Part shown: positions 5,774 to 37,165 of the stretch, piece by piece
Position numbering within the stretch: the first letter of the stretch is position 1
Layout of the letters: every line of letters begins with the position of its first letter
DNA from: a virus
Lineage: Duplodnaviria; Heunggongvirae; Uroviricota; Caudoviricetes
Reading direction: 5' to 3' (one strand)
Virus record (IMG/VR): IMGVR_UViG_3300012344_000014
Span: 42,581-106,580 of that record
DNA: 64,000 bases
The notes under the pieces: model-generated
Seen by the model: the letters and a program-made list of their open reading frames with translations, nothing else
The model's database searches: none
What the model was told of the DNA's origin: nothing
Position numbers and translations under genes: made by a program

Positions 5774-7663
5774 ATGGGAAACGTTCAGGGTGAGATTGAT
5801 CGCATTAGCGGCGCGAAGACCACACTGGGTGACTATCTCACCCAGAACGGGGTCAGCGTGGCCGACAGCGACAAGATTGACACGATGGCAAGCAAGCTTT
5901 CGACCGTAACGGCGAAGCAGGATAAGATTACTGCGAAGGGGATCCTTAAAGGGGATGGCGCGGGCACCATCACGGCGGCAGTGGCGGGGACGGATTACCT
6001 GACCCCGCAAGGGAACGCTGCGACGGCGACAAAACTGGCGACAGCCAGAACCATTGCCCTTGGCACCGGCGCGACCGGTACCGCGACAGGCTTTGACGGC
6101 AGTGGGAATATTACGATTCCGGTTACGGCTGTGAAGGAAAAGTATCTGAGCTGGGGCGGGAAAAATATCGTTGGAGATATTGCGCCTGTTGACGCGAGTA
6201 TGAGCGGAATGCTCGGCGCGGTTCGCAGCAATTTCATGAATCCTGCGGGAATTACAGTCGAATATTCCACGGATAGCGGCGTGACTTGGACAGATTATGG
6301 AGCGTCGGATAGTGATAAACGCGCACTTGTTAGCGAGTGTGCTTCTATGCCCAACTTTAAGCTGGGCAAGTACACCGATGGAGCTACGAGAGCAACAGAC
6401 CAGTTAAGGATTACAATTGATGGCGTTGCTGGCGGCGTTTACTTTAGTTTGAAGACGCTTTGTATTTATATGACTACAGGTGGGGCTTCGGGCTGTAAAT
6501 GCAAAGTTGAACACGCTCAGGGTAAAGCAGGTGCAACCGGTTTAAGCGATCTATCTTTTGTTACTGACGGAACTTATGATGTTGCTGGCTGGTCTGGTTG
6601 GAACAGTATTCCTTGCTCGTTAGCATATGGCGGTAAACGTACAAGAACTGATAATTCCAATGCAATCAGATTAACATTTTCTATTACAACGCCATATAGT
6701 CAGAGCCAACAATGCTGTATATATCGCGTTTTGATGCTGGGTACTACTTGCTGGGTTGGAAACAGTAATCAAGCAACATATGGAACGGCCTATCAATTAG
6801 ATGTGAGCCAGAATGTTGTTTTCCCCGCACAAGTTGCCGCCACCAAATTCAAGGGCGCGCTAACGAACGCTCTTAAGATCAACGGCAAAACCTACGACGG
6901 TTCCGCTGCGGTTAACGTGGGCGTTATCGGTGCGGCATACGGCGGCTCGGGGAAGACGACGCTTACGGATAGCGCGAACGCGTTTATAAACGCATTGACC
7001 AGCGGGACTGCAACTCCATCCGACGGAGACTATTATATCAGTCAATGGGCAAATGCGGCAAGCTCAACGGACGTGCAAAAAGCTACGTATGTGCGGCGAC
7101 CGATCAGCTCGCTTTGGACATACATCAAATCCAAAATCCCTTCGTGGGCATTGGCAGCGTCGAAGCCGACCTACACGGCAACCGAAGTGGGCGCTGAAGC
7201 GAGCGGCGCGGTGAGCACGCACAACACCAGCACGTCCGCGCATAGCACGCTGTTCGCGAACAAGGTGGACAAGGTGACCGGCAAGGGACTGTCCAGTAAC
7301 GACTATACGACCTCTGAGAAAGAAAAGCTTGCTGCGATTGAAGCGGGCGCGCAGAAGAACGTACAGGCGGACTGGGCGGCCACCAGCGGCGCAGCCGCCA
7401 TACTGAACAAACCCACCTTGCCCACCGTCGCACAGGCGCAGGTCACGCTGACGGCGGCGGGATGGAGCGGCACTACTCAGACCGTGACTGTATCCGGCGT
7501 GACGGCTGATAACATGGTCATCGTCACCTATGCGCCCGGCAGCCGCGCGGCATGGACGGACGCGGATATTTACTGCTCCGCGCAGGCGGCGAACGCGCTG
7601 GTCTTCACCTGCTCGGATACGCCTACAGAAGACGTGACCGCGAACGTGGCGATCTTCGGCTAA
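5774..7663 (+). CDS. tail fibre protein 2
   Basis: 629-aa ORF. It shares the modules KVTGKGLSSNDYT..EKEKLAAIEAGAQKNVQADW and SKPTYTATEVGAEASGAV.THNTS.SAHSTLF, plus the C-terminal module, with fibre 3. Confidence 0.8.
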   Translation: MGNVQGEIDRISGAKTTLGDYLTQNGVSVADSDKIDTMASKLSTVTAKQDKITAKGILKGDGAGTITAAVAGTDYLTPQGNAATATKLATARTIALGTGATGTATGFDGSGNITIPVTAVKEKYLSWGGKNIVGDIAPVDASMSGMLGAVRSNFMNPAGITVEYSTDSGVTWTDYGASDSDKRALVSECASMPNFKLGKYTDGATRATDQLRITIDGVAGGVYFSLKTLCIYMTTGGASGCKCKVEHAQGKAGATGLSDLSFVTDGTYDVAGWSGWNSIPCSLAYGGKRTRTDNSNAIRLTFSITTPYSQSQQCCIYRVLMLGTTCWVGNSNQATYGTAYQLDVSQNVVFPAQVAATKFKGALTNALKINGKTYDGSAAVNVGVIGAAYGGSGKTTLTDSANAFINALTSGTATPSDGDYYISQWANAASSTDVQKATYVRRPISSLWTYIKSKIPSWALAASKPTYTATEVGAEASGAVSTHNTSTSAHSTLFANKVDKVTGKGLSSNDYTTSEKEKLAAIEAGAQKNVQADWAATSGAAAILNKPTLPTVAQAQVTLTAAGWSGTTQTVTVSGVTADNMVIVTYAPGSRAAWTDADIYCSAQAANALVFTCSDTPTEDVTANVAIFG

Positions 7664-13516: not shown

Positions 13517-13834
13517 ATGATCATGCAGCCTTTGGCCACAGGCAGTGGCGGCGGGAGCGCGAAAATTTTCTTTGAGGCTGGCACTGCTGACCGCGGCAAC
13601 TTCACATTTGATCTGGGGTTCGCTCCGACTGAATGGGTGGGCGTGGCGGATTACAGTGTGTCGAGTGGGTACTCTCGTGAAATCTGGTCTTATTCGAAAG
13701 ACGGAACAGTTACTACAAAAACTGCGAATGGCGGCGCGTATGCAACGTGGGTTTTGTCGGGCACAAAACTGACGCTTACCGCAACCAGTGGAACAATGTC
13801 GTCCATTACAAATTACATTGTTTTTGCGCGCTAA
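13517..13834 (+). CDS. hypothetical protein
   Basis: 105-aa ORF with an AAGGAGGG RBS. Confidence 0.5.
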   Translation: MIMQPLATGSGGGSAKIFFEAGTADRGNFTFDLGFAPTEWVGVADYSVSSGYSREIWSYSKDGTVTTKTANGGAYATWVLSGTKLTLTATSGTMSSITNYIVFAR

Positions 13835-13848
13835 AAGGAGGAAATATT

Positions 13849-14250
13849 ATGAATAAAGTGTTTTGCATTTTGCTCACATAGGTTTTTATGATGACAGTAT
13901 GCGTTGGTATCGCCGCGGCGGAGACAGCGGCTGAACCGACCGCTCCTGTGGCACCTGTGACTGAACCGGACGCTGCCGGTGCTTTCGACCTGACCGAACT
14001 GGCAGTGGCGGTGCTATGCTTTGTGCTCGGCCTGTTGACCACGATCGTGACGGGCGTAGTTCGAAAGAATTTCAACAAGAACAAGCTCACCAAGCAATAC
14101 GACGAACTGTGGGCCCTCATCGGACAGAAACTGGAACAGGCGGGGCTAAAGGTCGACCGCGCGGCTATTGAGGCGGCGCTGAAACAGATGAGTGCCGCGG
14201 CACTGAAGGAGCTCGCCAAAGCGTTTAATAATGACGAACAGGCTGAATAA
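13849..14250 (+). CDS. membrane/secreted protein upstream of the endolysin (read through in-frame TAG 13879-13881)
   Basis: AAGGAGG RBS then ATG 13849, in frame with track ORF 13888-14250. The N-terminus MNKVFCILLT-TAG-VFMMTVCVGIAAA looks like a signal peptide, and a second TM segment is present (LAVAVLCFVLGLLTTIVTGVV). Confidence 0.6.
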
Positions 14251-15158
14251 TGAACATCAAGGTTAAGCTCACGCGTAAAACAAACGCGGACTATTATCAT
14301 GCTGCCAAAGGGGATGTTGTTTCCATCCCCTTCGAGCAGTATTTACTGGGCGTTGTGGCGAGCGAGATAGGAGTCGCCCCGCTGGAGGCATGCAAAGCAC
14401 AGACCATCGCGGCTCGAACATACGCGCTCCCGTATCTAACGAAGGGCGTGCCCATCAGCGACGCGTCCTCTACGGCGCAGGCGTATCGGGCGGAGCGGGC
14501 TGTAGACCCTGCTTATGAAAACGCGCATCGCGGCGTAAAAGCAACGGCCGGACTCGTGCTCTATTATGACGGCAAACCTCTGACAAGCTGCCCGTTCAGC
14601 AAGTCAAATGGCGGGCGCGAAATCAGCAACGCGGAGCGTTGGAATTCAACGGCGCTCCCATACCTGCCTTCGCAGGATGACCCGTGGGACTTGGCGGCTA
14701 CAAACGGAAAGAAGTTGGGACACGGCGTGGGCATGAGCCAGGAAGGCGCGAAGTACGCGGCGGGCACGCTCGGCAAAACCTGCGAGGAAATTCTCGCGTT
14801 TTATTATCCGGGGTGCGAAATACGCCCCGCGCAAGAAAAAGAGGTGCCGATAACAATGATTGGAACGGTAACGACCGCGAACGGCGGCGCGCTCAATATG
14901 CGGAAATATCCAGGCGCTTCGGCTGACCGGATTCTGAAGATTCCTAATGGGGCTGAAGTGAATATCCTGAGCACGGAAACGATCACGGACGGGTGGTACG
15001 AAGTGGAGTACAATGGGCAAACGGGGTATGTTATGGCCGCCTATGTGTCGGTGCGTGGTGAATCCGAGCCTAGTGCCTACACGGTCGGCGTCCGGTTCGA
15101 CACAAGAGCCGAGGCCGAAGCGTTCAGAGCCTTGCTTCAGCAGGCAAAAATATATTGA
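14250..15158 (+). CDS. endolysin: SpoIID/LytB-like domain plus C-terminal SH3b
   Basis: SpoIID-type motif YLLGVVASEIG...EACKAQTIAARTYAL. SH3_3-like C-terminus GALNMRKYPG...GWYEVEYNGQTGYVMAAYV. Confidence 0.8.
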   Translation: MNIKVKLTRKTNADYYHAAKGDVVSIPFEQYLLGVVASEIGVAPLEACKAQTIAARTYALPYLTKGVPISDASSTAQAYRAERAVDPAYENAHRGVKATAGLVLYYDGKPLTSCPFSKSNGGREISNAERWNSTALPYLPSQDDPWDLAATNGKKLGHGVGMSQEGAKYAAGTLGKTCEEILAFYYPGCEIRPAQEKEVPITMIGTVTTANGGALNMRKYPGASADRILKIPNGAEVNILSTETITDGWYEVEYNGQTGYVMAAYVSVRGESEPSAYTVGVRFDTRAEAEAFRALLQQAKIY

Positions 15159-15173
15159 CAGGAGTGATTCCTG

Positions 15174-15488
15174 GTGGAATGGCTAATTCAATTCCTGGTA
15201 AAGTATTGGGTTGAGTAGCTGCTGACGGCGGTCGTTGGAGCGTTCGTCGCGTATATCAAGAAAGAGGCGAGCACGCAAAAAGCGCTCAGACACGGAATGG
15301 TGGCGCTGCTGCGGGACCGGCTTTATCAGGCACACAATCAATACGAACATCTCGGGTATTTTCCAATCGATGCGCGCGAAGTGGTCGAGGATATGTTCAA
15401 ACAATATATAACGCTCGGCGGGAACGGCATTGTCCGGCATTTGAAAGAGGCGCTGGACGAACTCCCCACTGAGCCAGGGAAACAATGA
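15174..15488 (+). CDS. holin-like membrane protein (read through in-frame TAG 15216-15218)
   Basis: GGAG RBS 9 nt before GTG 15174, in frame with track ORF 15297-15488. The N-terminal TM segment WLIQFLVKYWVE-TAG-LLTAVVGAFVAYI is present only if TAG is read through. Confidence 0.55.
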
Positions 15489-15766
15489 AACAAAATCTTT
15501 CTAAACCCGAGACTTCGAAAATTATTCTTTTCAGAACTTTCTGGATATTCTGGGCGCTGGTTGTGCTTGTTATTGTGATGATCGCTTTGTTTCCCGCGGT
15601 AGGGGATTATATGATCGATGTACTGCAGACCGCGGCCACATTGGCCGGGGCGGTTCATGTCGGATATTTCGGAAAAGCTGGTATAGAAAATTTCAAGAAG
15701 ATTGAGTCTGCGATGAGAAATTCTGTGGACGATGATGTCTATGACGACGAAGACTGCGAAGGATAA
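15485..15766 (+). CDS. membrane protein (second holin candidate)
   Basis: 93-aa ORF with an ATGA overlap to the previous gene. TM segment IILFRTFWIFWALVVLVIVMIALF. Confidence 0.6.
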   Translation: MKQNLSKPETSKIILFRTFWIFWALVVLVIVMIALFPAVGDYMIDVLQTAATLAGAVHVGYFGKAGIENFKKIESAMRNSVDDDVYDDEDCEG

Positions 15767-15904: not shown

Positions 15905-17527
15905 TCATAAGGAAACATTCTATTGGTCGAGCTTCCCGGCGAACTTGTAGTAAATTTCTATTTTCTGCGTTGGTTTGCCATTCTGGTCACAGCGTCTATC
16001 GTGGACTACGATTTTGTCGATCAGCGCATTGAGCATCGGGATAGTCAGTTTGGTTGGATGGGTGTAACGTTTGACCATGTTAGCCCATTCGTTAAGACCT
16101 CTTTGGGTTTCGTCGGTAGCTCGTTGTGCTTCTTCGGCGGCAGCGATGAATTCTTGAAGGGCGGTTTGCTCGTCTTGGTATTTTTTGAGCAGCGTCGAGA
16201 AATTGTTCGGAGTGATGTTTCCTTCGGCGCGATCCTCATAGAGTGAGGCGAGCATCCCGTCTATTTTTCGTAGACGCCGCTTTTTATCATCAAGCTTCGC
16301 TTGCTCCTTGTCCCCACTAGACTGAGTTGCTTTGCGCGAAGAATTCATAATCTCCTGGGCAAAATCTATTTCGTTCCCAGCGAGTGTCGAGGTCCAATAC
16401 TGTATCCGTGATAGCACATAATTGTAGAGGGTAGACTGCCTTATGTAATGCGCGGTGCAGTGTTCTTTACCGAATTCCGAATATTGCCGGCAGACGTAGG
16501 CTTTATCGTCGGGAGCATAGCAGGGACGGGCTTTCAACGCTTTCCCGCAGGTTGAACATTTTAGCAGACCGGCGAAAAGCTGGGGCGTCCCATCCCCGCA
16601 GGAACGACGCCGCCGTGAAATATTTTCCTGAACCCGCTCGAATGTCTCGCGCGATATAAGAGGCGGATGGGTATTTTCTACCCGGTAAAACTCATCAGCG
16701 GAGTTGTGAATTCGTTTTTTGCTTTTGTACGAAATCTTTTGCCTGCGGTAATGAATCGTATTTCCAATGTATGTTTCATCCATCAGTATGGAACGCACGG
16801 CGGAGCTTTGCCAGAAGCTTTTCTTCTCTTCGGCGGCGTTCTCATAGTATTGCGAATACGCGCCGTAGCGGCTATAGCCAACCCAGCCCGGGGTAGGGAC
16901 TTTGGACGTCCTCAGATACCTTGCGATTACATTGTAGCCGTTTCCTTCCAGCGCAAGCGCGTATATCTTTTCGATGATCCAGCGGGTGTCTTCGTCGATG
17001 AGGAGTTTGCCTTTTTCTTTCGGACTCCATATATAACCGAGCGGCGGTGTGGGGCCTAGGCGTTCGCCTTTTTCATATTTCGCTTTTAGCGCGGCCTTTA
17101 CTTTCCGGCTGGTGTCTTTGGCGTACCACTCGTTGAAGAGGTTCTTAAAAGGGGAGAAGTCGCTCATACCTTTCTCGGAGTCTTCGCCGTCGTTTACCGC
17201 CACATAGCGGACGCGCTTCTCAGGGAACACGTATTCCAAGTAGCGATCCACCTGAATGTGTTCGCGCCCCAACCGGGAGAGGTCTTTTGTGATAACGCAA
17301 TTCAACGCGCCTTTGTCAATGTCCGCCATCATACGTTGAAACGCCGGTCGGTCAAAATTTGTACCAGACCATCCATCGTCGACGTATTCATCATAAATCG
17401 CAATGTTGTTGTCTTCGCAATATTGATGAAGAATCCGGCGCTGCGTTTCAATGCTGCCGCTGTCGCCCGGCTCTCCGTCATCGTTGCTTAGCCGCATGTA
17501 AAGAGCGGCTACCCAGGGTTGTTTCAT
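15905..17527 (-). CDS. large serine recombinase (integrase)
   Basis: Resolvase-type N-terminus (ALYMRLSNDDG...SIETQR), recombinase and zinc-ribbon regions and a C-terminal coiled coil. AAGGAGG RBS before ATG 17527. The frame meets TAG at 15920-22, then TGA at 15905-07. Confidence 0.9.
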
Positions 17528-17594
17528 TCCCATCCTCCTTTCGATAGAGAAACAACCCACATTTGCATGCGGGTTGATTATAGCATAAGTGGAA

Positions 17595-17756
17595 TTAAGA
17601 CGCAATTTTAAGATTGCGAAGGATGAATTCTTTGAAGAGGTCGGCGAATGGTTGGCCGTCCGCAGCGAAATGTTCTGTTATAAGAATTTTCACTTTGCCG
17701 GCGTCAAAGCATTTTTGTTCAGTCAATAGTATATTCTTCTCTGCGATTCCGAACAT
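17595..17756 (-). CDS. small hypothetical protein upstream of the recombinase
   Basis: AAAGGAG RBS then ATG 17756; 53 codons (MFGIAEKNILLTEQKCFDAGKVKILITEHF...) ending in TAA 17595-97. Below the track length cutoff. Confidence 0.4.
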   Translation of the reverse strand: MFGIAEKNILLTEQKCFDAGKVKILITEHFAADGQPFADLFKEFILRNLKIAS

Positions 17757-19080: not shown

Positions 19081-19397
19081 TAAACCTTATCCTCCTTCAT
19101 GTTTTCAAGCAGCAGGTTATACAGATCGCGTGTGGTGGCGAGCGGAATGTCTTTGTCCCCGTCCGTTATCATGCCAGGTTTATATCGCCGGCCGAAGTTA
19201 AGCTCCCAACAGAAGTAGCCGGTCCAGTCGTTTTCTTTATCTTTCATAATAATTTCCAGCAGGTTTACAATGGGATCGTCCAGCTGGCACAGTTCAGGAA
19301 GGCGTATGGCGTCGTCTGTTGCATCCGAAACCTTTTCGCAGAAGTCGTTCCATTCCATCAATCGGTGCAGAATTTCATCGAATAAGTCAAATGTCAT
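19080..19397 (-). CDS. hypothetical protein
   Basis: 105-aa acidic ORF. Confidence 0.55.
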   Translation of the reverse strand: MTFDLFDEILHRLMEWNDFCEKVSDATDDAIRLPELCQLDDPIVNLLEIIMKDKENDWTGYFCWELNFGRRYKPGMITDGDKDIPLATTRDLYNLLLENMKEDKV

Positions 19398-19410
19398 TGT
19401 GTTCTCCTTA

Positions 19411-19419
19411 TGATATAAT
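19411..19419 (+). promoter_or_regulatory. extended -10 promoter (TGATATAAT)
   Basis: Perfect TGnTATAAT located 10 nt before the 5' arm of the 19429-19740 element. Confidence 0.55.
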
Positions 19420-19428
19420 TGTGTCGGC

Positions 19429-19740
19429 GGGGAGAGGAGCGGAGGCGATCGCGTTTACATAGCCGCACCTGATGCATCGGGATGCGTAGCGCTATGTGAA
19501 AGGAGCGATGTGCCAATGGAACATGTTTGTGACGTTATGATCGAACTGTTTCTTGAGTACGTCGTCAAAAAGGTGATCTCATAGATGAAAACCTGGCTGA
19601 CGGGGCAACTCGAAAAGGCCAGGAAAAACAAACCTGAGCCTAAGTACACTATTTGTACTTGGGAGCAGCATTGCCGGTAATAGAAACCGGCGGGGTTAAC
19701 GCGATCGCCCCTTAATATTGCTGTACCGCTCCATCTCCCC
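19429..19740 (+). other. stem-closed + strand cassette (structured transcript enclosing a small ORF)
   Basis: The 5' arm GGGGAGAGGAGCGGAGGCGATCGCGTT (19429-55) is complementary to AACGCGATCGCC...CCGCTCC.TCTCCCC (19698-19740), giving helices of 12+7+7 bp. Confidence 0.45.
19516..19680 (+). CDS. small ORF inside the stem-closed cassette (in-frame TAG 19582-19584)
   Basis: AAAGGAG RBS 10 nt before ATG 19516; 54 codons if TAG is read through, ending TAA-TAG. Alternatively a separate ORF from ATG 19585 with its own GGTGA RBS. Confidence 0.3.
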
Positions 19741-19775
19741 GTTCACAAAAGAAAACATTGCAGTCTGCCGCGTGT

Positions 19776-19786
19776 TTGTGTATAAT
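19776..19786 (+). promoter_or_regulatory. candidate -10 promoter (TATAAT) for HicA-like gene 1
   Basis: TTGTGTATAAT lies 20 nt upstream of ATG 19807. Confidence 0.4.
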
Positions 19787-19806
19787 AGCCACAGGAGGTG
19801 GCTTCA

Positions 19807-20019
19807 ATGCATAAGCCGTTAGGTAGCAAAGAGGTTATCTCGATACTCGAAAAGTAGCAGTGGCGCAAGCTCAAAAACCGTGGTAAGGGAAGCCATACGG
19901 TTCTTGAGAACCCTGAGAACGGGCTCCACGTTACGGTACCCCGCAGCAAAGAACTCCCAGCGGGAACCTAGAAGAGTATCGGGCGGCAAACCGGTGTGAA
20001 TTTTGATGATCACCGGTGA
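19807..20019 (+). CDS. hicA: HicA-like mRNA-interferase toxin, copy 1 (in-frame TAGs at 19855 and 19969)
   Basis: AGGAGGTG RBS. The sequence ...EVISILEK-TAG-QWRKLKNRGKGSHTVLENP..HVTVPRSKELPAGT-TAG-KSIGRQTGV matches the HicA pattern (GSH ... VP ... GT.xSI.xQxG) only if both TAGs are read through. Confidence 0.65.
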
Positions 20020-20032
20020 GCGACCTCGCTTC

Positions 20033-20070
20033 AAAATGGACGGCCTTCTACTGGGCATGTCCATTTTTGT
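20033..20070 (+). terminator. hairpin plus T-run after HicA-like gene 1
   Basis: ATGGAC pairs with GTCCAT, with an inner GCC/GGC pairing, followed by TTTTTG. Confidence 0.4.
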
Positions 20071-20102
20071 TTGTAAACGGCAGACCGCAATGATGGGGTG
20101 GG

Positions 20103-20720
20103 TTAAATAATTTCGTCCATTGTTTTCACAATGATGTCGCAGACTCCGTGCTCAAGGCAAAAAACGGAATCCAGTTCCCAGTCATTGTTGCGCTTTTTAT
20201 TCAGCAGCTTAGCAGGAATGTTGGTCTTCTTGAGGATATGTTCCTTCATGGCTTTTAGGGAACTTTTGTAGCTGTCGGCCGCGTCGAACACCTTGGTGCT
20301 GTCGCCGGAAAGGGAGGCGCTGCCCTCGTGGATTACAACGCGAGCGCGGGGAAGCATGAAACGCTTATGACCGCTGAGGAAGATGATACCAGCCGCTGAA
20401 GCGCACACGCCCATGTTAACCGTATAAACCGGCGTCACAGAGGATTCGATTGTATCAATGAAAGACCACATCATATCGGCGTCGCCGCCGTAATTCATCA
20501 GATACAGCCAGATCGGTTTGCGCTCATTGACCGGCTTGCCCGCGTCTTCAATGTTCCAGCGGAGGATCAGCCGCTCATACTCGAGCATGTTGATATCGAC
20601 TTCGCCGTCGAGCCAGAGTTTGCGCTCTTTTTCCAGCTTGTAATAGGATACCAGTTCAGGATCTGGCAACTGATAATTGCCAACGTTATCAGAAAGAATA
20701 GGAAGTACAAGTCCGTCCAT
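20103..20720 (-). CDS. ClpP-family serine protease
   Basis: 205 aa; IWLYLMNYGGD...VNMGVCASAAGIIFLSG...RVVIHEGS fits the ClpP/S14 Ser-His arrangement. Confidence 0.75.
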   Translation of the reverse strand: MDGLVLPILSDNVGNYQLPDPELVSYYKLEKERKLWLDGEVDINMLEYERLILRWNIEDAGKPVNERKPIWLYLMNYGGDADMMWSFIDTIESSVTPVYTVNMGVCASAAGIIFLSGHKRFMLPRARVVIHEGSASLSGDSTKVFDAADSYKSSLKAMKEHILKKTNIPAKLLNKKRNNDWELDSVFCLEHGVCDIIVKTMDEII

Positions 20721-20731
20721 ATGTTCTCCTC

Positions 20732-21442
20732 TCAGGATCTATGTTCTACGCTGTCAGCCCAGTTGGACACAACACCGCGATAGTTATGGGTCAGTTTACA
20801 GACGGCGGCAAAAGGTTCATATCTCGCCTCGGCCAGATAATCCACAAAGCCGGAATGTTCAGGCCGGTGATACAGATCGCACTGGCCGGTATGACCGATG
20901 ACGATTGTTTTGCAGCTGTCATGGATGCGGGTCAGGGTTTTCTTGAGCTCATCGAAGTAATAGTTCTGCGCTTCATCGATGATAACGACCTTATTTTCGA
21001 TGTTTTGCCCGCGGAAGAAGGTGTGGGACACACAGTCGATATACGCGGTATCCTCCTTTACGTTCATCATGTTCTCCTGCTTGACAGCGTGCATTACATC
21101 GATGCCGGCCTTGAGCGCCGCCTGATAAAACGGCTCGTTATAAACAGAGAGCTTATCCTGCACGGTGCCGGGGAGAAACCCGATCTTCTGTTCCTGTACA
21201 GGGGAAGTGACGTAAACGATGCCCTCATAACGCCCATATTTGACGAGCAGTTCGGCCGTCATAACTGCGATGGTTGTTTTGCCGCAGCCGGCTTTCGCAT
21301 CGCAGAGAACGATCAGCTTTTCGGGGTCCCAGATCGCGTCGCGAAACGCCCTCTGTTCGCCGTCAAGCTGGAGGCCGAAGAACGGATGATCGTCCAGTGT
21401 CTCCGGCGGGTTAGAATAATCGATAGTTTTTCGTTTTGCCAA
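20732..21442 (-). CDS. phoH: PhoH-like ATPase
   Basis: Walker A motif DAKAGCGKTT; VVIIDEAQNY...IVIGHTGQCDL is typical of PhoH. Confidence 0.85.
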   Translation of the reverse strand: MAKRKTIDYSNPPETLDDHPFFGLQLDGEQRAFRDAIWDPEKLIVLCDAKAGCGKTTIAVMTAELLVKYGRYEGIVYVTSPVQEQKIGFLPGTVQDKLSVYNEPFYQAALKAGIDVMHAVKQENMMNVKEDTAYIDCVSHTFFRGQNIENKVVIIDEAQNYYFDELKKTLTRIHDSCKTIVIGHTGQCDLYHRPEHSGFVDYLAEARYEPFAAVCKLTHNYRGVVSNWADSVEHRS

Positions 21443-21493
21443 ACCGTATCATCACCTTTGCTTTTAATGGTTGTATATTGTCGCCCCGTGCCG

Positions 21494-21499
21494 TATAAT
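21494..21499 (+). promoter_or_regulatory. candidate promoter for HicA-like gene 2 (TTGTAT-N17-TATAAT)
   Basis: -35 TTGTAT (21471-76), 17-nt spacer, TATAAT (21494-99). An alternative -10, TATATT, lies at 21474-79. Confidence 0.4.
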
Positions 21500-21518
21500 G
21501 AGTGCGGAGGTGATTTTC

Positions 21519-21734
21519 TTGAAGAAGAACATATCTTCTCGGGAAGTTATCTCAATACTCAAAGAGCACGGATTCGTAGAAGACAAACGCCGGAGGACGG
21601 GCGGAGACACTATCTTTGTTAAACAGGGCTAGACGTCACACGTAAAAGTCCCCACAGGCCGGGAGTCGATACGAATCGGTACTTAGGTTAGTATCGAGAA
21701 ACAGTCCGGATTGCCCATTCGGTGTTAGCTGTAA
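21519..21734 (+). CDS. hicA: HicA-like protein, copy 2, divergent (in-frame TAGs at 21630, 21684 and 21726)
   Basis: GGAGGTG RBS then TTG 21519. REVISILKEHGF... and ...VKVPTGRESIRIGT-TAG-VSIEKQSGL are paralogous to copy 1, with TAG at the same GT-TAG-xSI position. GSH is replaced by GGD. TAA lies at 21732. Confidence 0.5.
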
Positions 21735-21790
21735 TGGGCTCCGGGCGGCTTCCGCACTCATTGCACGGCGCAGGCCGGCAATATGCGAAG

Positions 21791-22063
21791 TTAGTCGGAT
21801 TCTACCTTCGCCACGAATTCATCAATCGCGTCTTCAACAGGCATTGCTTTGCCCGATACGCGGCTGTAAATCATCCCGTTGCGCCCATACAAGTACAGGT
21901 CCCCGCCGGCATAGGCTTTAGAAACCCGCTTGAGAACGTCCCATCCCATTGCGGCGGCAACCTCATCCAGATAGATCAATGTGGTAATCGCATCGTCAAT
22001 CAGCTCATGGTCCTGGTCGCGGAGAGCGGAAAGTCCATCGATAATTTCATTCAATGTTTTCAT
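21791..22063 (-). CDS. hypothetical protein
   Basis: 90-aa ORF directly downstream of glyA. Confidence 0.5.
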   Translation of the reverse strand: MKTLNEIIDGLSALRDQDHELIDDAITTLIYLDEVAAAMGWDVLKRVSKAYAGGDLYLYGRNGMIYSRVSGKAMPVEDAIDEFVAKVESD

Positions 22064-27082: not shown

Positions 27083-27122
27083 TCATATAATAAAGGGAAC
27101 ATTTTCATGCCCCCTTTTTCAC
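27083..27122 (-). promoter_or_regulatory. conserved intergenic element, copy 1 (candidate phage-specific promoter)
   Basis: The - strand reads TGAAAAAGGGGGCATGAAAATGTTCCCTTTATTATATGAAAGGAG, just upstream of the nrdH-like/nrdD/nrdG operon. Near-identical copies lie at 32556 and 51774. Confidence 0.5.
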
Positions 27123-27628
27123 ATTTGAAAAATTTTATTTTGAATAAGCCACGCGACGCCTACCGCAACCGCATCAGATTCGTCGTCGCAGGCGTAACGC
27201 TGAGGGCCGACATAATCCTCAAGCATCTCGGCCACGCGGTCTTTCTCCGCATTGGCGTCGCCGGTGACGATGCGCTTGGTCATGCGAGGATCGATCTCTT
27301 CAAACTCTCTGCCTGTCAAATGCCAGGCATAAAGATCGGCCACGCCGACAACCTTATGCAAAACCCCGATGGTCTTCATCTGATAGCGGCCGGGGTAAAT
27401 CGCTTTCTCTCGAACCAATATGGCGTCCGGATAAGCGGTCATATATCGCTTCTATTCGCGCGCAATCTCCAGAAGCATCTGGCCATGCGTTTTCTTGCGG
27501 GCATACTTGTTGTTGACATTGCTGAGCTCGCGCACGGTGATCGTATTATTCTCACAATGAAGCAGCGCAAAGCCGGGGCGATGGAGCGAGAGATCGCAGG
27601 CGAAGACATCGACGGCGGTTTCAGGCAC
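27119..27628 (-). CDS. ruvC: RuvC-like Holliday junction resolvase (read through in-frame TAG 27452-27454)
   Basis: GAGGGGA RBS then GTG 27628. The N-terminal half (VDVFACDLSL...LLEIARE) and C-terminal half (YPDAILVRE...TGDANAEKDRV...DESDAVAVGVAW) are in one frame, separated only by TAG. Confidence 0.75.
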
Positions 27629-27977
27629 AGGGCGTCCCCTCGCTTTCACGCGCCAGCTTATCCGTCTCATAGGCGAAGAGCGCGCGGACAATGGCGTGCG
27701 CCAGATGATCATCGCTGATATCGCCGGCAAGATAAGCGTACAGATGTTGGATGCAATGCCCGATATGCTCCTCGGGCGGGATTTTTGTATAGTTACGGCA
27801 GGCGAAGGTTTCGCCGTATTTCTCAGCACCGGCCTTCGCGACTTCAGCCGCGGCAAACATTGCATGCACGGGCAGAAGCTGGAAAGCATAAGGGCTGCGG
27901 CTTTGCTTGCCGCCTTCGCTGTTCACGACGACGGGGACGTCTTTACCGACCCCGAAGATTACATTATCGCCAAGCAT
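27621..27977 (-). CDS. MazG-like / dATP-dGTP diphosphohydrolase N-domain-like protein
   Basis: The pattern AGAEKYGE...EEHIGHCIQHLYAYLAGD..DDHLAHAIVRALF; family recalled from memory. Confidence 0.45.
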   Translation of the reverse strand: MLGDNVIFGVGKDVPVVVNSEGGKQSRSPYAFQLLPVHAMFAAAEVAKAGAEKYGETFACRNYTKIPPEEHIGHCIQHLYAYLAGDISDDHLAHAIVRALFAYETDKLARESEGTPCA

Positions 27978-30419: not shown

Positions 30420-31080
30420 TCTTTTCCTCCCATGTGATATCATCAAAAATAACGGGAAACAGTTTCTGGAATTCGCAAAGCAACGGGCGCATGAGCGAGC
30501 GCATTTCCGGATAAGCGGCCGACGAGGTGCGCAGCTGAAAAATATGCCGCCATTCCCGCAGGTTTGCCTTCATGACGATGATGCAGGCGGTAGAATTGGG
30601 GAGCACCTTGCGCGCGTCTTCCGCCTTCATGCCGCACTCATACCTGAGATACCGGTAATAAGTTTCGGCATGCTCCATGGACGCATCCCAGCCGCGGGAA
30701 GCGCACCATGTTTTCGCATCCAGATCGGGGCCTTCGGCTGGAAGATAGATATCCGGCCGGATGAAGCTGATATCTCCGGTCTTATCATCTTCGACATAGC
30801 GCTGGCTCTGAACGCAGAAACTGGGGAGCCGGTGCCGTGTGATCTCGGCCAGGACATCGCGCCCGGTGACGAGCTCAACCATGGCGTCGCCAAACTCAAT
30901 AGGGGCTTCATGCCCCCGCTTTATAAGCCCGCCAAGAAACTTGCGCCAGCTATCGGCCGTGATTTTATCATGCGAGCGATAGCAATTACGGGCGGCGTAT
31001 TCGATAAGGCGCAGCGTTTCCAGTGCGCGCTCCGGCGTGGACGGCGAGAGAATCTTAAAAGACTGGTTAATTACCTTCAT
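30412..31080 (-). CDS. thyX: flavin-dependent thymidylate synthase
   Basis: ThyX signature RHRLPSFCVQSQRY. Start at ATG 31080 (MKVINQSFKIL). Confidence 0.9.
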   Translation of the reverse strand: MKVINQSFKILSPSTPERALETLRLIEYAARNCYRSHDKITADSWRKFLGGLIKRGHEAPIEFGDAMVELVTGRDVLAEITRHRLPSFCVQSQRYVEDDKTGDISFIRPDIYLPAEGPDLDAKTWCASRGWDASMEHAETYYRYLRYECGMKAEDARKVLPNSTACIIVMKANLREWRHIFQLRTSSAAYPEMRSLMRPLLCEFQKLFPVIFDDITWEEKNA

Positions 31081-31444
31081 CGAAGGTTGATTCCTCCTTT
31101 CCTTCTTCATTATTAATGAGGGAATCCGCCTCGACGCCGTCCGTGTTTTCAGGATCGGTTTCAGCGTATTCGCTATCCCGATCATAGAGGTTGCCGCGCA
31201 TATCGCCGTTGAGGCGCATGAGCAGCGTTTCAAACCGGAGAGAGGAGAGCATAACGGTGCCCTCGTTAAAGAGAATGACGGAGCGGATTTTGCGCCCGAC
31301 CGTCGCATCCAAGAGATGCTTACGGCCTTTGGCAGCTTTGACCTATTCTTTCGAAGTCATGGTGCGCGGGTTAAGAACGGCAATGACATGATTGGCGCAG
31401 ACGGCATGCTTCAGGCCAGCGTTGACAAAGCGCAGTTCTTCCAT
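31067..31444 (-). CDS. RemA/DUF370-like protein with acidic tail (read through in-frame TAG 31343-31345)
   Basis: ATG 31444 abuts the upstream stop. MEELRFVNAGLKHAVCANHVIAVLNP..SKE-TAG-VKAAKGRKHLLDATVGRKIRSVILFNEG.VMLSSL..ETL..R follows the RemA pattern across the TAG, in frame with track ORF 31067-31312. Confidence 0.65.
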
Positions 31445-32555: not shown

Positions 32556-32594
32556 CATATAATAAAGGGAACATTTTTCACCCCGCTTTTTCAG
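32556..32594 (-). promoter_or_regulatory. conserved intergenic element, copy 2
   Basis: The - strand reads TGAAAAAGCGGGGTGAAAAATGTTCCCTTTATTATATGAAAAG, between the Pol III alpha stop and the SPFH gene. Confidence 0.5.
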
Positions 32595-35500
32595 TTTGAG
32601 CGGGCGAAACAGAAATTTTTTTGTAGCCGTCCATCCAAAGCTCAGTCACGCCGGGCTTGACAGAACGTTTGCCATCCTGATACTGATAGGCGGGCTTCTT
32701 CTGCCAGCCAAGGAGCTTGATGACGTCGCCGGCCTTAACGGGATCTTTAGCGAAATCAGGCTTGCGAATTTTCATCACACCGGTGTCTCCGGTGGAGACG
32801 CTATAGAGCTTCAGCTTGGGGCTATATTTCTCATCCACATCAATGACGGCGTAGCAGCCCTTCTTTTCGGGATAGACGCTGAGGGGCGCGCCGAAATAGT
32901 CGCACTCGAAGGGAATGATTTCCTCCATGGGGAGATCTTCATCCGGCAGGGAAGACTCCAGATCGCGCAGGACGGCGAGACGTTTCTGCTGCGTCTTCTC
33001 GACGAGCCCTTTATAGAACCGGTTCTCGCCGGACTTGAACTCCTGAAAGAGCTTGAGCAGTTTGGCGGAGCCGCCGAAATCGCTGAAGTATCCCATCTTG
33101 ATGAGCGCGGTGATGCTGGTGGCGTCGAACGCCGGAGACATATCCATATCGTAAAGCAGATCGGTGAAGTAAAGATACAGCGTATCGCGCATTTTATAGA
33201 GCGCGTCGGCGACTTTTCTACTGACGTGCTTGACGGAGGTGAGCGCGTCGGCGATGGTGTGCGCGCTTTCATCGATAAAGAAATCGCGGTTATCCTGCCC
33301 GAACTTGCAAGCGACGACGCGGATGCCGAACGCCCGACGCATTTCCTCCTTGGCTTTGGCGATGCGGTCTTTATCCTTCTTGGCGGCGTAGGCGCGAAGC
33401 AGGGTGGTGTAATACTGATAAGGATAGTGCGCCTTGAGCCATGCGCCGTAAAGACTATCCAGCGCGACGCAGGTGGCATGCGATGCATTAAAAAGATAGG
33501 AGCAGGAATCGTTGATGATCTGCCAGATTTTATCGGTGGTGGCGAGAGCTTCGGCCTCAGTGACATGCTCCTCCTCCACGATGCGCTGAGAGAACGTGGC
33601 GCGGAACTTTTCCTTGAGAGCGAGCACCTTTTCGGGATGCTTCTTCGAGATGGCCTTGATGGCGGCATAGGATTCAGCCCCAGTGAAACCGCCATGCTGT
33701 AGGACTTTCATGATCTGCTCCTGAAACATGAGGAAGCTGTCGGGAATTTCTTTCGTCTGAAGCAGGTTATCCAGCGAGGGGATACCATAATCGAAATGCC
33801 GGCGGGCGAGGAATGTATCGATCATCGACTTGAAGCCCGGGCGGATGGCGGCGACGAACGCGGCCAGCTCGGTAATATTGCGCGGCTTATAGCGGGCGAC
33901 CTTTTCAGTGGCCTTCTCGCGCTCAACCTGATTGAGCCCCATGGTATAGCCTTTGGCGTACATATCCCAGACTGGATCATCCGGCGGGCACATGGCGAGC
34001 AGTTCGTTAACAGAGGGGAGGGGGATATTGGCGGCCTTGTAGGCGGCGGCGTTGATGTTGACGACGGTGACGGAAAGAAGATCGTTTTTTAGATATCCGT
34101 ATCGATCCGCTGTCGCCCCGTCGATAAAAGCGGCATAAATAGTTCCCTTCTTGCCGGTTTTGCTATTGATACGATAAAGCCCAATTTCCCGGCGGATATC
34201 CTGATCGGTCAGAAGATAGGAACAGGGGCTGGGGGAGATGGAATCGACCATGCCAAGATATTTATTGGACATGCGCAGCTGCTCATGATACTCCTTGGGC
34301 ACGTAATCGAACGGATCGATGGCTTCGCGGTCTTCATCGTCTTCGGCGTATTTTACATCAAGCTCATACTTTTTCAAGCTGTCAGAGATGGCGTTAGCCG
34401 TTTCGAAGGCGACGTTGGTAGAACGGCAATACATCTTCCAGGCGGAAAGCCGTTTGAGCGTGCCAAAGGCGACCATCTGCGCGCTATGCCACTCGCCCAT
34501 GACCTCGGCCTGCGCTTTTTCAAACACCTCAACGTTGCCGCAGTTCAGATCCAAATCCGGCATCTGACCGGTGCTCAGGCGCTCTTTGGAAATAAACCGG
34601 TCGGGGTACATGGTGACGGGCATCTTCAAGCGATCAACGGAGGAGAAGCCGAGAAGCATATTCGTCAGGAAACTGACGCCGCTATTATGGACGACCATAT
34701 GATTAAGTAAGTAGCTGTGTGAATTTTCGATATGCAGATCGTAGACTTTGCACTTCTGCCGAGGTAGAAGATTGATTCCAGTAACTGGAATAAGCCAGTA
34801 CTTGTCGTTTTCAGATATTTTGCGTGACATCCCATAAGGAGTTGAATAAACGGGAATAACCCATTTATATGAGGTTTTGCAGTTATAACCGCGTTTATCA
34901 AACCAACGATCTCGCACTGTAAGCCGCGGCGGCTTCTCTCCAGCTTTCATACAAAGAATATTAAAGGCGTTCATCAAGGAAGGAGATGTATTGTCAAAGC
35001 ATTTACGATCCGATTCAGCAAAACAGCCATCGGTACGCATAAGCCCCGATAAAAAAGCTTTTGATTTCTCGTTATCAAGAAGCAAAATCTCATCGGGGAC
35101 AACTTTATCGTTTCCCTTTTTTGAAATGAAATACGTACAGCCAAGATATTTAGCAAAGGAAGAAGCATGCAGGGTAAGTTGAACCAATTTTTTATTTTTA
35201 GCTTTCGCTTCATAAATAGTTCCGCCAACCCGCGATGCCATAGTCTCAAAGATTTTGCGATTGTAAATATTTTTTTCGTTCTCCGCATTGATGGCAATAC
35301 CACAGACATAACTGCCGTCGTTTCTATGTCGAACCCAGCCGTCTCCATACATCATACCAAGGAATTCGTAATAGAGCGCGTCTTTAACGACCCATCTGCT
35401 CATCAACCGAAAACAAGTATCCTTATATTTTTGCGTAAGCGCTTCTTGAGTATCAACACCATAATAATCGAGTATTTCTCTTTTTGCTTTATTGAGATAT

Positions 35501-37089
35501 ACCCCAGGGCCACGACGAACTTCCGCGGAAGTTCGCCCAACAACAAAATTGTATAACGCTGAACGGGAGATGTGGAATTTTTTCATCAGGATTTCCCAGC
35601 CAAACGCTTCGCGCATCATGTCTTTGCGTAATTCAAAAATATGATCTCCGTCAAATATAGAGGCTCTGCTAATGTATTTGCTGAGATCAACCACTTCGGC
35701 AGTTTGTGAGGCCGGCTGAACAATCTTCGGAATACAAAGCAAATCCCCTTTCTTCAGCCGCGATGCTTCCACCCAGTCATAAGAGCCGTTCAACCGGCAA
35801 ACGAGAACACGATGATCCAACGTACATGTAGGATAAGAGCCAAACATCTTATTCGCCGGAGCCTGAATTTCAACAAGGGGTTCGTCAATATCATAAGAGA
35901 AGGTTTCAATTACTTTTTGATAATCCCCATCCTTATCAATTACAACGTCTCCAGGAGCCACTTGCGAAATTTGTTTCAGCCCGGTCAGTGTTGGCACACG
36001 CGCAGTGTCGGTGAAACAGCCCCTTCCAGATTGGGTTAACACCCCGCCTTCCCGCTTGGCAGTATCGACAACGCGGTTATCAATAAGAAAATAATCCGAA
36101 GTGTTGGTACCGGTAACGGCGTCTGTCTCATACCGGATCGCTTCTTCGTATTCCGGCCAGCGCTCCTGCGGCACTTCAGCTTTATACTGATCCCACGCCT
36201 GATGTACAAGGTCGAGATATTTTTGATTGCGCTCTTCCTGCGTCATGTCGGGATAAGCCGCGGGGAGCTTGCGGCGTTTACCAAACGAGACATCCTCAAA
36301 ATCCAGGAAGACGTTTGTGTTTTCCATCGCTTCATTAATCTGGGCGACGGACAGAACGCCCTGCGCCTTGAACCTGTCGAGCAAATGCTTTTCAGAGGGA
36401 TAATCCATATCCCAACCCTCTTCATCTTCATATTTAAGATGATGGGACTCAAGCAGCTGATCGCGCAGTTTGGAATCCTCCGGGTAAATGAAATGGGAAT
36501 CGGTTGCGGCAATGAGCGGGATATTATACTTGCGATAAAGATCGAGCACGAGCCGGTTGACATCCTTCTGCTTATCGACGTTATGCGCCTGAACCTCGAG
36601 CATGAAGCTGCCGCGGAAATGATCGTTCAAGAGCGTAACGAGCCGTTCGGCCTCCTCCGCGCCGTACTTCCAAATACCGCCGACGCAGGCTGTGGTAACG
36701 AATACATCCTTCGGATCGAGGGCCATGAGCAGATCCAGATCGACGCGGGGGCGATAGTAATAGCCGGTGATATTCGCTTCGGAGAGCGCATAATTCAAAT
36801 CGCCGACGCCTTTGCGCGTCTTCGCTGCCAGAATGAGATGGCAGTTGGATTTGTCTTTTTCGAAGCGGTCCTTGACGAAATAGGCTTCGGTAACATAGCG
36901 CCACTTCAGGCCATACTTTTCAGCTAGCTCGGCGCACTCCCAATAGTTGCCCTGCGTGCCATGGTTACAGGAGGAAAGAACCGTCTGGTTCAGTTCGACG
37001 GCGCGCCTGGCGTAATCCTCCATGGTGGCGACGCTGTCGGCAAGCATGATATTGGAGATGTGATCATGTTTATGATAATTGACGTACAT
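32578..37089 (-). CDS. dnaE: DNA polymerase III alpha subunit (PHP plus polymerase core), intein-containing
   Basis: GGAGGT RBS then ATG 37089. The PHP N-terminus is MYVNYHKHDH. About 1500 aa; the GRG/SGVSF (GRGSAAGS-type) motif is split by an insert. Confidence 0.9.
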   Translation of the reverse strand: MYVNYHKHDHISNIMLADSVATMEDYARRAVELNQTVLSSCNHGTQGNYWECAELAEKYGLKWRYVTEAYFVKDRFEKDKSNCHLILAAKTRKGVGDLNYALSEANITGYYYRPRVDLDLLMALDPKDVFVTTACVGGIWKYGAEEAERLVTLLNDHFRGSFMLEVQAHNVDKQKDVNRLVLDLYRKYNIPLIAATDSHFIYPEDSKLRDQLLESHHLKYEDEEGWDMDYPSEKHLLDRFKAQGVLSVAQINEAMENTNVFLDFEDVSFGKRRKLPAAYPDMTQEERNQKYLDLVHQAWDQYKAEVPQERWPEYEEAIRYETDAVTGTNTSDYFLIDNRVVDTAKREGGVLTQSGRGCFTDTARVPTLTGLKQISQVAPGDVVIDKDGDYQKVIETFSYDIDEPLVEIQAPANKMFGSYPTCTLDHRVLVCRLNGSYDWVEASRLKKGDLLCIPKIVQPASQTAEVVDLSKYISRASIFDGDHIFELRKDMMREAFGWEILMKKFHISRSALYNFVVGRTSAEVRRGPGVYLNKAKREILDYYGVDTQEALTQKYKDTCFRLMSRWVVKDALYYEFLGMMYGDGWVRHRNDGSYVCGIAINAENEKNIYNRKIFETMASRVGGTIYEAKAKNKKLVQLTLHASSFAKYLGCTYFISKKGNDKVVPDEILLLDNEKSKAFLSGLMRTDGCFAESDRKCFDNTSPSLMNAFNILCMKAGEKPPRLTVRDRWFDKRGYNCKTSYKWVIPVYSTPYGMSRKISENDKYWLIPVTGINLLPRQKCKVYDLHIENSHSYLLNHMVVHNSGVSFLTNMLLGFSSVDRLKMPVTMYPDRFISKERLSTGQMPDLDLNCGNVEVFEKAQAEVMGEWHSAQMVAFGTLKRLSAWKMYCRSTNVAFETANAISDSLKKYELDVKYAEDDEDREAIDPFDYVPKEYHEQLRMSNKYLGMVDSISPSPCSYLLTDQDIRREIGLYRINSKTGKKGTIYAAFIDGATADRYGYLKNDLLSVTVVNINAAAYKAANIPLPSVNELLAMCPPDDPVWDMYAKGYTMGLNQVEREKATEKVARYKPRNITELAAFVAAIRPGFKSMIDTFLARRHFDYGIPSLDNLLQTKEIPDSFLMFQEQIMKVLQHGGFTGAESYAAIKAISKKHPEKVLALKEKFRATFSQRIVEEEHVTEAEALATTDKIWQIINDSCSYLFNASHATCVALDSLYGAWLKAHYPYQYYTTLLRAYAAKKDKDRIAKAKEEMRRAFGIRVVACKFGQDNRDFFIDESAHTIADALTSVKHVSRKVADALYKMRDTLYLYFTDLLYDMDMSPAFDATSITALIKMGYFSDFGGSAKLLKLFQEFKSGENRFYKGLVEKTQQKRLAVLRDLESSLPDEDLPMEEIIPFECDYFGAPLSVYPEKKGCYAVIDVDEKYSPKLKLYSVSTGDTGVMKIRKPDFAKDPVKAGDVIKLLGWQKKPAYQYQDGKRSVKPGVTELWMDGYKKISVSPAQTEKAG
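34684..36018 (-). mobile_element. intein (445 aa) with LAGLIDADG homing endonuclease in Pol III alpha
   Basis: Starts CFTDT after QSGRG and ends MVVHN followed by +1 Ser. Two LAGLIDADG-like motifs are present (FLGMMYGDGW, FLSGLMRTDGCF). The region is visibly more AT-rich than its flanks. Confidence 0.9.
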
Positions 37090-37103
37090 AATACCTCCAC
37101 CCC

Positions 37104-37132
37104 TTGTTATTTCAAATGAGACATGATATACT
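37104..37132 (+). promoter_or_regulatory. sigma-A-type promoter (TTGTTA-N17-TATACT with a TG extension)
   Basis: Lies in the divergent intergenic region between dnaE and the + strand island. Confidence 0.55.
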
Positions 37133-37165
37133 TTGTTTATAATGCACGAAAGGATTTGAACGACA

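Follow-up and report, generated by a model that had tools for sequence, protein, structure and literature searches.

HicA-like toxin genes interrupted by in-frame TAG codons in a TAG-recoding phage, and a possible translational gate in place of an antitoxin

The stretch of phage DNA analyzed here (64,000 nt, positions 42,581 to 106,580 of IMG/VR virus record IMGVR_UViG_3300012344_000014; hereafter the window) contains two genes, hicA copy 1 (hicA1) and hicA copy 2 (hicA2), that encode full-length HicA-type toxin domains when their in-frame TAG codons are read as sense. The fact that neither copy is accompanied by a HicB antitoxin gene, that TAG is evidently a sense codon in this genome, and that TAG is strongly enriched in the two hicA genes pointed to a reading in which amber suppression gates HicA and stands in for its antitoxin, and to this reading we give an even chance. 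In a standard-code cell, translation would stop at codon 17 of copy 1 or at codon 38 of copy 2, and full-length HicA would be made only while amber suppression was active. Such a translational gate would be the most likely reason why a toxin gene without an antitoxin is tolerated, and the toxin might then be used for lytic host shut-off, as a safeguard of lysogeny, or in defence against other recoded phages. The toxicity of HicA, the activity of its promoters, the timing of suppression and the use of the toxin are all points that we infer from sequence.

Membership of both copies in the HicA family was supported by profile searches in which the TAGs were masked or replaced beforehand. Against the Pfam HicA_toxin profile (PF07927, cut-off 27 bits), copy 1 scored 51.7 bits (E = 9e-14) and copy 2 scored 33.4 bits (E = 5e-8), each over profile positions 1-58 of 58 and with a match that spans the TAGs. 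Both copies also matched PHROG 353 ("toxin"), and copy 1 matched the HicA structures 4c26 and 6g26 in the PDB (E ~3e-5), with its G28-S29-H30 aligned on Gly22-Ser23-His24 of B. pseudomallei HicA. In the B. pseudomallei protein, toxicity is abolished by G22C and by H24A, and both Gly22 and His24 are thus needed (PMC3969222). Judging from these matches to solved HicA structures, both copies would adopt the double-stranded RNA-binding domain (dsRBD)-like alpha-beta-beta-beta-alpha fold. The catalytic G-x-H motif is present in copy 1 (G-S-H) but not in copy 2 (G-G-D), where Asp occupies the catalytic His column, which is His in 119/120 of the standard-code homologues to which we aligned the copies.

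The two copies share 36% amino acid identity, and the motifs EVISIL, HV.VP and GT-TAG-.SI..Q.G align between them. The TAG that they have in common (codon 55 in copy 1, codon 56 in copy 2) falls in a single alignment column, which is Leu in 120/120 homologues. We observed that the family-invariant residues G28, P45, G53, T54, S57, I58, Q61 and G63 are retained in both copies, including those that lie 3′ of the TAGs, and that the paralogues differ synonymously at conserved residues 3′ of the common TAG, suggesting that this part has been under protein-level selection since the duplication. Readthrough of copy 1 is predicted to yield an active toxin that cleaves mRNA, while copy 2 is probably a non-cleaving RNA-binding paralogue that has lost the catalytic His yet has been kept by purifying selection.

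TAG does not interrupt hicA alone. Contigs of 112,235 nt and 112,403 nt, circularly permuted relative to each other, also contain the window sequence, and the genome is that of a ~112 kb, probably temperate phage of gut Clostridia; genes of the window code for a DNA polymerase III alpha subunit that contains an intein, NrdD, a ligase, a primase-helicase, a serine integrase and collagen-like tail proteins. Conserved Pfam domains run through an in-frame TAG in three unrelated genes other than hicA, namely those encoding RemA-like, RuvC-like and PAPS-reductase-like proteins (Table 1), and the PHROG domains of the Dit and of a holin-like protein also span in-frame TAGs. Under the standard code, the next start after the TAG of a tail-fibre-like repeat gene would be at 4950, leaving ~400 nt without a gene in a tightly packed block. 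Of 77 standard-code gene calls, just three ended in TAG, and two of these were fragments of TAG-containing genes, leaving the integrase only. The fact that domains continue through TAG, together with the avoidance of TAG as a terminator, indicates that the TAGs in hicA belong to a genome-wide code, and TAG is evidently read as sense across the whole genome. The RuvC-like, PAPS-reductase-like and RemA-like genes lie on the same - strand as the polymerase, ligase and primase-helicase genes, which argues that suppression would not be strictly late.

Several further features of TAG usage were observed alongside these. A TGA lies five codons beyond the TAG that ends the serine integrase gene (15920-17605, -). 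In a sister phage (123 kb contig, loci L011 and L012) this place is taken by a tyrosine integrase (L011 6263-7555), which indicates an exchange of the integration module. Outside hicA, the TAGs that occur in frame are mostly close to the 5′ end, with 12/16 falling within the initial 45% of the gene, and several tail genes carry one between codons 24 and 35; this bias may be attributable in part to uncertain start codons. In the lysis region (13747-15766, +), the SpoIID/SH3 endolysin gene (14250-15158) is TAG-free, while the small membrane protein genes that flank it carry TAG at codon 45 (13747-14250) and at codon 15 (15174-15488), in agreement with the published pattern for recoded lysis genes. 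A second + strand island, at 37166-38805 within a block of - strand genes, encodes a protein with PG_binding and PASTA domains and a membrane protein of 85 codons with two in-frame TAGs.

We found no HicB next to either hicA copy or elsewhere in the 83 of 112 kb of this genome that we searched, using Pfam on 65 small open reading frames (ORFs), tblastn, and an ad hoc profile hidden Markov model run against 1,510 six-frame ORFs. The standard-code relatives of HicA that we examined had an adjacent partner gene in 9/9 cases. Among six standard-code homologues, this partner was a Pfam HicB (PF15919) in three and a conserved protein of 76-77 aa in the other three, and in phages phi105, AP45 and PBL1c an annotated HicB or HicB-like gene directly follows hicA. 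A toxin-antitoxin system of a different type is present in the window, as a complete AbiEi/AbiEii pair (abortive infection, type IV toxin-antitoxin; 54012-55567, -; PADLOC E ~1e-74 each) without an in-frame TAG. The original prediction had described two HicA-like paralogues with GSH in one copy and GGD in the other, a TAG at the same position in both, and no HicB adjoining either, and profile searches, the alignment and the wider HicB search all upheld this description. It had also given each gene its own promoter with a TATAAT -10, which we recovered as promoter-like TTG-17-TATAAT sites followed by GGAGGTG, and standard-code products of 16 aa (copy 1) and 37 aa (copy 2), which can be read directly from the sequence. 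It did not include the TAG at codon 70 of copy 2, two codons before the TAA, among the in-frame TAGs.

We next compare the frequency of TAG in hicA with that in the remainder of the genome, where TAG usage is sparse (~0.07% of codons). The hicA copies contain 5 TAG per 141 codons, compared with 18 per 25,020 elsewhere in the 104 called genes of the window and its flanks, corresponding to a 49-fold excess (Fisher p = 1.6e-7). A scan of species-representative genomes additionally identified a third HicA cassette, at 5996-6198 of locus L071 in a goat-colon Clostridia genome (JAFQPI010000039.1). No HicB accompanies this cassette, whose signals are TTGACT-17-TATAAT, AAGGAGGTG, a terminator and a GTG start codon. 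The HicA that it encodes scored 69.5 bits across two in-frame TAGs, shares 59% identity with copy 2 and retains the catalytic His; its TAG positions differ from those of the window copies, and TTA (Leu) stands at the column of their common TAG. The cassette lies within a Tn4451-like mobilisable element, with a MobA/MobL relaxase on one side, ParB and a TnpX-like recombinase on the other, and a sporulation gene adjoining, and its hicA is the sole TAG-interrupted ORF in 8.8 kb, in which the other genes are ordinary standard-code ORFs. In the HicA lineage as a whole, six independent in-frame stops were all TAG, with zero TAA or TGA (chance ~0.0014), and no frameshift was present in the window copies, in the hicA2 of the sister phage or in the L071 gene. 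Amber codons have thus arisen repeatedly, and at different sites, in copies that lack an antitoxin.

Other searches for relatives were negative. Scans of IMG/VR with either protein returned no further relatives, and the degenerate EVISIL and SIEKQSG patterns gave 42 and 5 matches there, respectively, all by chance. Scans of JGI metagenomes, by alignment and with the GT-TAG-SI DNA pattern, yielded no relatives, and the IMG/VR phages that are ~59% identical in ClpP had no hicA near ClpP. In a homologous-protein search, copy 2 retrieved nothing and copy 1 retrieved only a 46-aa fragment from the sister phage; a representative-protein search with this fragment returned the fragment itself and repeat proteins only. 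Standard-code gene callers miss or shorten such genes, as the sister copy is recorded only as this fragment and copy 2 has no entry.

The sister phage carries both cassettes at the same places. Its hicA2 is intact and keeps all three TAGs, and we counted 14 substitutions between the two hicA2 genes, of which 9 were synonymous and 5 non-synonymous, supporting purifying selection (p = 0.0016).

Each window copy is preceded by a promoter-like site of the sigma-70 type and by a strong Shine-Dalgarno sequence (Table 1), and the TTG-17-TATAAT layout recurs in both copies of the sister phage, where the spacer sequence of copy 2 differs. The -35 hexamers of both copies are weak (3/6 matches), and the sites were absent from a generic promoter scan. 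Given this layout, which the other copies have kept, both cassettes would be expected to have promoter activity. The hairpin between copy 1 and the convergent ClpP-like gene is probably a bidirectional intrinsic terminator that the two genes share. The cassettes are oriented opposite to the neighbouring ClpP, PhoH and SHMT genes, and a - strand promoter-like site lies inside hicA2. Rfam found no family in the window or around the cassettes, and PADLOC had no model that matched either HicA copy.

Upstream of copy 1, the region 19391-19700 contains a small ORF with a promoter-like site of its own and also two hairpins. Conservation with the sister phage is highest over positions 19500-19699 (93-97% identity, compared with 74-87% in flanking genes), and the substitutions that separate the small ORF from its sister counterpart are mostly non-synonymous. 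This ORF had no Pfam, Rfam or PADLOC match, and it is uncertain whether it forms part of the hicA unit. Its product resembles neither HicB nor the 76-aa partner family.

Table 1. Positions of the hicA copies, their expression signals and other genes of the window with an in-frame TAG here or in the sister phage.
Feature	Position	Strand	Details
hicA copy 1	19807-20019	+	ATG to TGA, 70 codons; in-frame TAG at 19855-19857 (codon 17) and 19969-19971 (codon 55)
hicA copy 2	21519-21734	+	TTG to TAA, 71 codons; in-frame TAG at 21630-21632 (codon 38), 21684-21686 (codon 56) and 21726-21728 (codon 70)
Promoter-like site of copy 1	19758-19786	+	TTGCAG, 17-nt spacer, TATAAT
Shine-Dalgarno sequence of copy 1	19794-19800	+	GGAGGTG, 6 nt before ATG; identical in copy 2
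Promoter-like site of copy 2	21471-21499	+	TTGTAT, 17-nt spacer, TATAAT
Shine-Dalgarno sequence of copy 2	21506-21512	+	GGAGGTG, 6 nt before TTG start
Hairpin with T-runs on both strands	20033-20075	.	Between copy 1 and the end of the ClpP-like gene; fold of 20015-20100, both strands
Stable hairpin without U-tract, 3′ of copy 2	21740-21799	+	Fold z-score -2.56
Small ORF upstream of copy 1	19516-19680	+	54 codons; in-frame TAG at 19582-19584
Promoter-like site of the small ORF	19391-19419	+	ATGTCA-17-TATAAT with TG extension
RemA-like gene	31067-31444	-	TAG at codon 34; PF04025 positions 1-73 of 73 across TAG; PDB 7bm2 alignment
RuvC-like gene	27119-27649	-	TAG at codon 66; PF02075 residues 21-165; PHROG 159; TAG conserved in sister phage
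PAPS-reductase-like gene	42202-43116	-	TAG at codon 134; PF01507 residues 43-249
Tail-fibre-like repeat protein	4548-5759	+	TAG at codon 24
Holin-like membrane protein	15485-15766	+	Codon 53 TTG (Leu) here, TAG in sister phage; downstream frame conserved

Known recoded phages decode TAG as Gln (PMC10607447; PMC9523058). To compare the two amino acids here, we scored Leu and Gln at the TAG positions of six protein families, and the difference (Leu minus Gln) was +6.0 bits for HicA, +2.9 bits for RemA and -0.3 bits for PAPS reductase with Pfam profiles, and +3.6 bits for RuvC, +1.6 bits for Dit and +0.8 bits for the holin-like protein with PHROG profiles. Leu therefore outscored Gln in 5/6 families, with the sixth neutral, and the total without HicA was +8.6 bits; in the Pfam substitution test, Leu was the best among Q, L, E, K, S, Y and W. 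An orthologous exchange also speaks for Leu, as codon 53 of the holin-like gene is TTG (Leu) in the window and TAG in the sister phage. The TAG of one tail protein aligned with Q in one paralogue and with L in another, and two close variants of the phage (L007 and L009) keep every TAG and are uninformative on the decoded amino acid. Taken as a lead from few sites, and with no tRNA seen in 83 kb, these scores suggest that TAG may encode Leu rather than Gln in this phage, which, if true, would be a new phage code variant.

A translational gate had already been proposed in the original prediction, and three of our results speak for it: the 49-fold enrichment of TAG, the L071 cassette, and the presence of a partner in 9/9 standard-code relatives. 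Other results weigh against it, at least in the form in which it was proposed. Replication and repair genes contain TAG as well, so that suppression would not be late-only and the gate would not be private to hicA. Within the 83 kb searched there was no suppressor tRNA (anticodon CUA), nor a tRNA of any kind, and we found three cassette lineages only. With its catalytic His absent, copy 2 is probably not a toxin that needs a gate. Copy 1 has decayed in the sister phage, where a 24-nt deletion has removed strand beta-1 together with codon 17, and the loss of 2 nt shifts the frame just after the second TAG; copy 1 is therefore dispensable. In hicA2, the substitutions that follow the first TAG (2 synonymous, 3 non-synonymous) are too few to demonstrate selection by themselves. 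Moreover, synonymous divergence (pS) from the sister phage is 0.18 in hicA2 and the region upstream of hicA1, compared with ~0.55 in flanking genes (p = 5e-7), and this low value could result from recent exchange of the cassettes or from a constraint that acts on the nucleotides themselves and not on the protein.

The same observations led us to weigh three other explanations. It is possible, though in our view unlikely, that hicA1 and hicA2 are simply ordinary genes of a recoded genome, in which TAG is one more sense codon without regulatory meaning, a legacy of a more heavily recoded ancestor, and HicA is an RNase for lytic host shut-off that needs no antitoxin in a doomed host. In agreement with this, TAG is read through in many unrelated genes on both strands, the cassettes and the upstream region are far less diverged from the sister phage than their flanks are, as would be expected for recently exchanged modules, and the common TAG is older than the duplication, placing the lineage in TAG-reading genomes for a long time. 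However, the excess of TAG in the two hicA genes, and the standing of the L071 gene as the sole TAG-interrupted ORF among standard-code neighbours, would both be unexpected if TAG were a neutral sense codon, and this explanation likewise does not account for the contrast between TAG-bearing copies without HicB and standard-code relatives that all have a partner. We consider it quite improbable that the copies are instead decaying relics, in which the antitoxin was lost and the toxins were inactivated by nonsense mutations, leaving pseudogenes, or sequences that count only through their nucleotides or N-terminal peptides, for instance by serving the PhoH-ClpP genes as a promoter or 5′ region. 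The deletion and frameshift in the sister copy 1 and the loss of the catalytic His in copy 2 fit such decay, as does the L071 cassette, whose two TAGs would truncate HicA in an apparently standard-code bacterium; the unusually low synonymous divergence of hicA2 fits a nucleotide-sequence constraint, and the - strand promoter-like site within hicA2 would be consistent with a regulatory role. Plain pseudogene decay, however, would be expected to produce TAA, TGA and frameshifts, as it did in copy 1 of the sister phage, and in the window copies, the sister hicA2 and the L071 gene all six independent stops are TAG and the frame is unbroken. The retention of all family-invariant residues 3′ of the TAGs, the conservation of promoter and Shine-Dalgarno elements, the purifying selection on hicA2, and the demonstrable readthrough of TAG in this genome also argue against decay. 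From the lack of an antitoxin, the repeated appearance of amber codons at different sites, and the absence of any other stop or frameshift, we surmise that selection for TAG codons as a lock on translation fits better than either neutral codons or decay.

A third alternative places the trigger outside the carrier. Here hicA would be under constitutive transcription in lysogens, or in cells that carry the element, and would remain untranslatable until an incoming TAG-recoding phage brought suppression with it, whereupon HicA would be completed and the infection aborted (superinfection exclusion or abortive infection). The moron-like architecture of the cassettes, with a host-type promoter and a terminator and an orientation opposite to the phage's own genes, is consistent with this, as are the presence of such a cassette next to standard-code genes in a Tn4451-like element that is not a phage, and the AbiEi/AbiEii pair that the window phage also carries. 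The phage would, however, trigger its own copies in the lytic cycle, and only three lineages are known, and we regard such a defence as very unlikely. Gating by suppression could also take a more elaborate form, which we put forward as a speculation with a low probability: hicA would act as a sensor of suppression, in which toxin mRNA made from a host-type promoter is completed on arrival of a suppressor, and which would fire on induction of a recoded prophage, or as abortive infection against TAG-recoding phages in lysogens or in mobile elements of standard-code Clostridia. This proposal is linked to the identity of the decoded amino acid, since with TAG as Leu only a suppressor of the phage's own type would restore the invariant Leu of the GTL motif.

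Some other genes of the window are also of note. A - strand gene at 32578-37494 encodes the polymerase III alpha subunit, whose 1,638 aa include an intein splicing domain; the product of another, at 38881-40083 (-), combines WGR and PARP catalytic domains, and one of the small ORFs encodes a Macro-domain protein. In a scan of small ORFs, a small protein encoded at 56497-56709 (-) weakly matched the anti-CRISPR family AcrIC5 (Pfam E = 1.4e-6).

Toxins of toxin-antitoxin systems are thought to be tolerable only in the presence of the cognate antitoxin, and the pattern described here suggests that such a toxin may be silenced by stop codons that only a changed code reads. A role in gating both lysis genes and the lysogeny switch has been suggested for TAG recoding in gut phages (Borges et al., bioRxiv 10.1101/2021.08.26.457843), in a report that names neither toxins nor HicA, and the gate considered here extends that proposal to a toxin gene. 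If true, it would provide a simple testable case for the stop-codon-recoding hypothesis, with one small gene, two codons and a growth phenotype, and bacteria or mobile elements may in addition detect recoded phages by means of amber-interrupted toxins.

Compared with known type II HicAB systems (HicA mRNA interferase, PF07927; HicB, PF15919 and PF05534), the genes described here likewise encode a full-length HicA domain of ~70 aa with the canonical GSH, VP and GTL.SI..Q.G motifs, and copy 1 likewise keeps the Gly and His needed for toxicity. They differ in having no HicB in 83 kb, 2-3 TAG per gene, and, in copy 2, Asp for His, and their control would be translational, through suppression, rather than by protein-protein neutralisation. 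In common with TAG-recoded gut phages (Borges et al., bioRxiv 10.1101/2021.08.26.457843; Peters et al., PMC9523058; Babkin et al., PMC10607447), the present genome uses TAG as sense, has an integrase gene that is free of in-frame TAG and ends in TAG, and has TAG in small membrane proteins of the lysis cassette. Its source sample, moreover, comes from the SRR17470xx series of runs on which the study by Borges et al. drew. In contrast to those phages, the gene that would be gated here is a toxin of the toxin-antitoxin type, TAG is sparse and occurs also in replication genes, no suppressor tRNA was seen in 83 kb, and TAG scores better as Leu than as the reported Gln. The hicA genes in the HicAB modules of standard-code temperate Firmicutes phages (Bacillus phi105, Aeribacillus AP45 and Paenibacillus PBL1c; PHROG 353) are similar in size, 37-46% identical, and likewise accessory genes near integrases; unlike the copies in the window, they have no in-frame stops and are directly followed by a HicB-like gene. 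A parallel to the proposed mechanism is found in engineered suppressor-tRNA systems, where barnase with amber codons serves in negative selection and this RNase toxin is harmless until an amber suppressor is active. That system is man-made, and the amber-interrupted hicA genes would be its natural counterpart.

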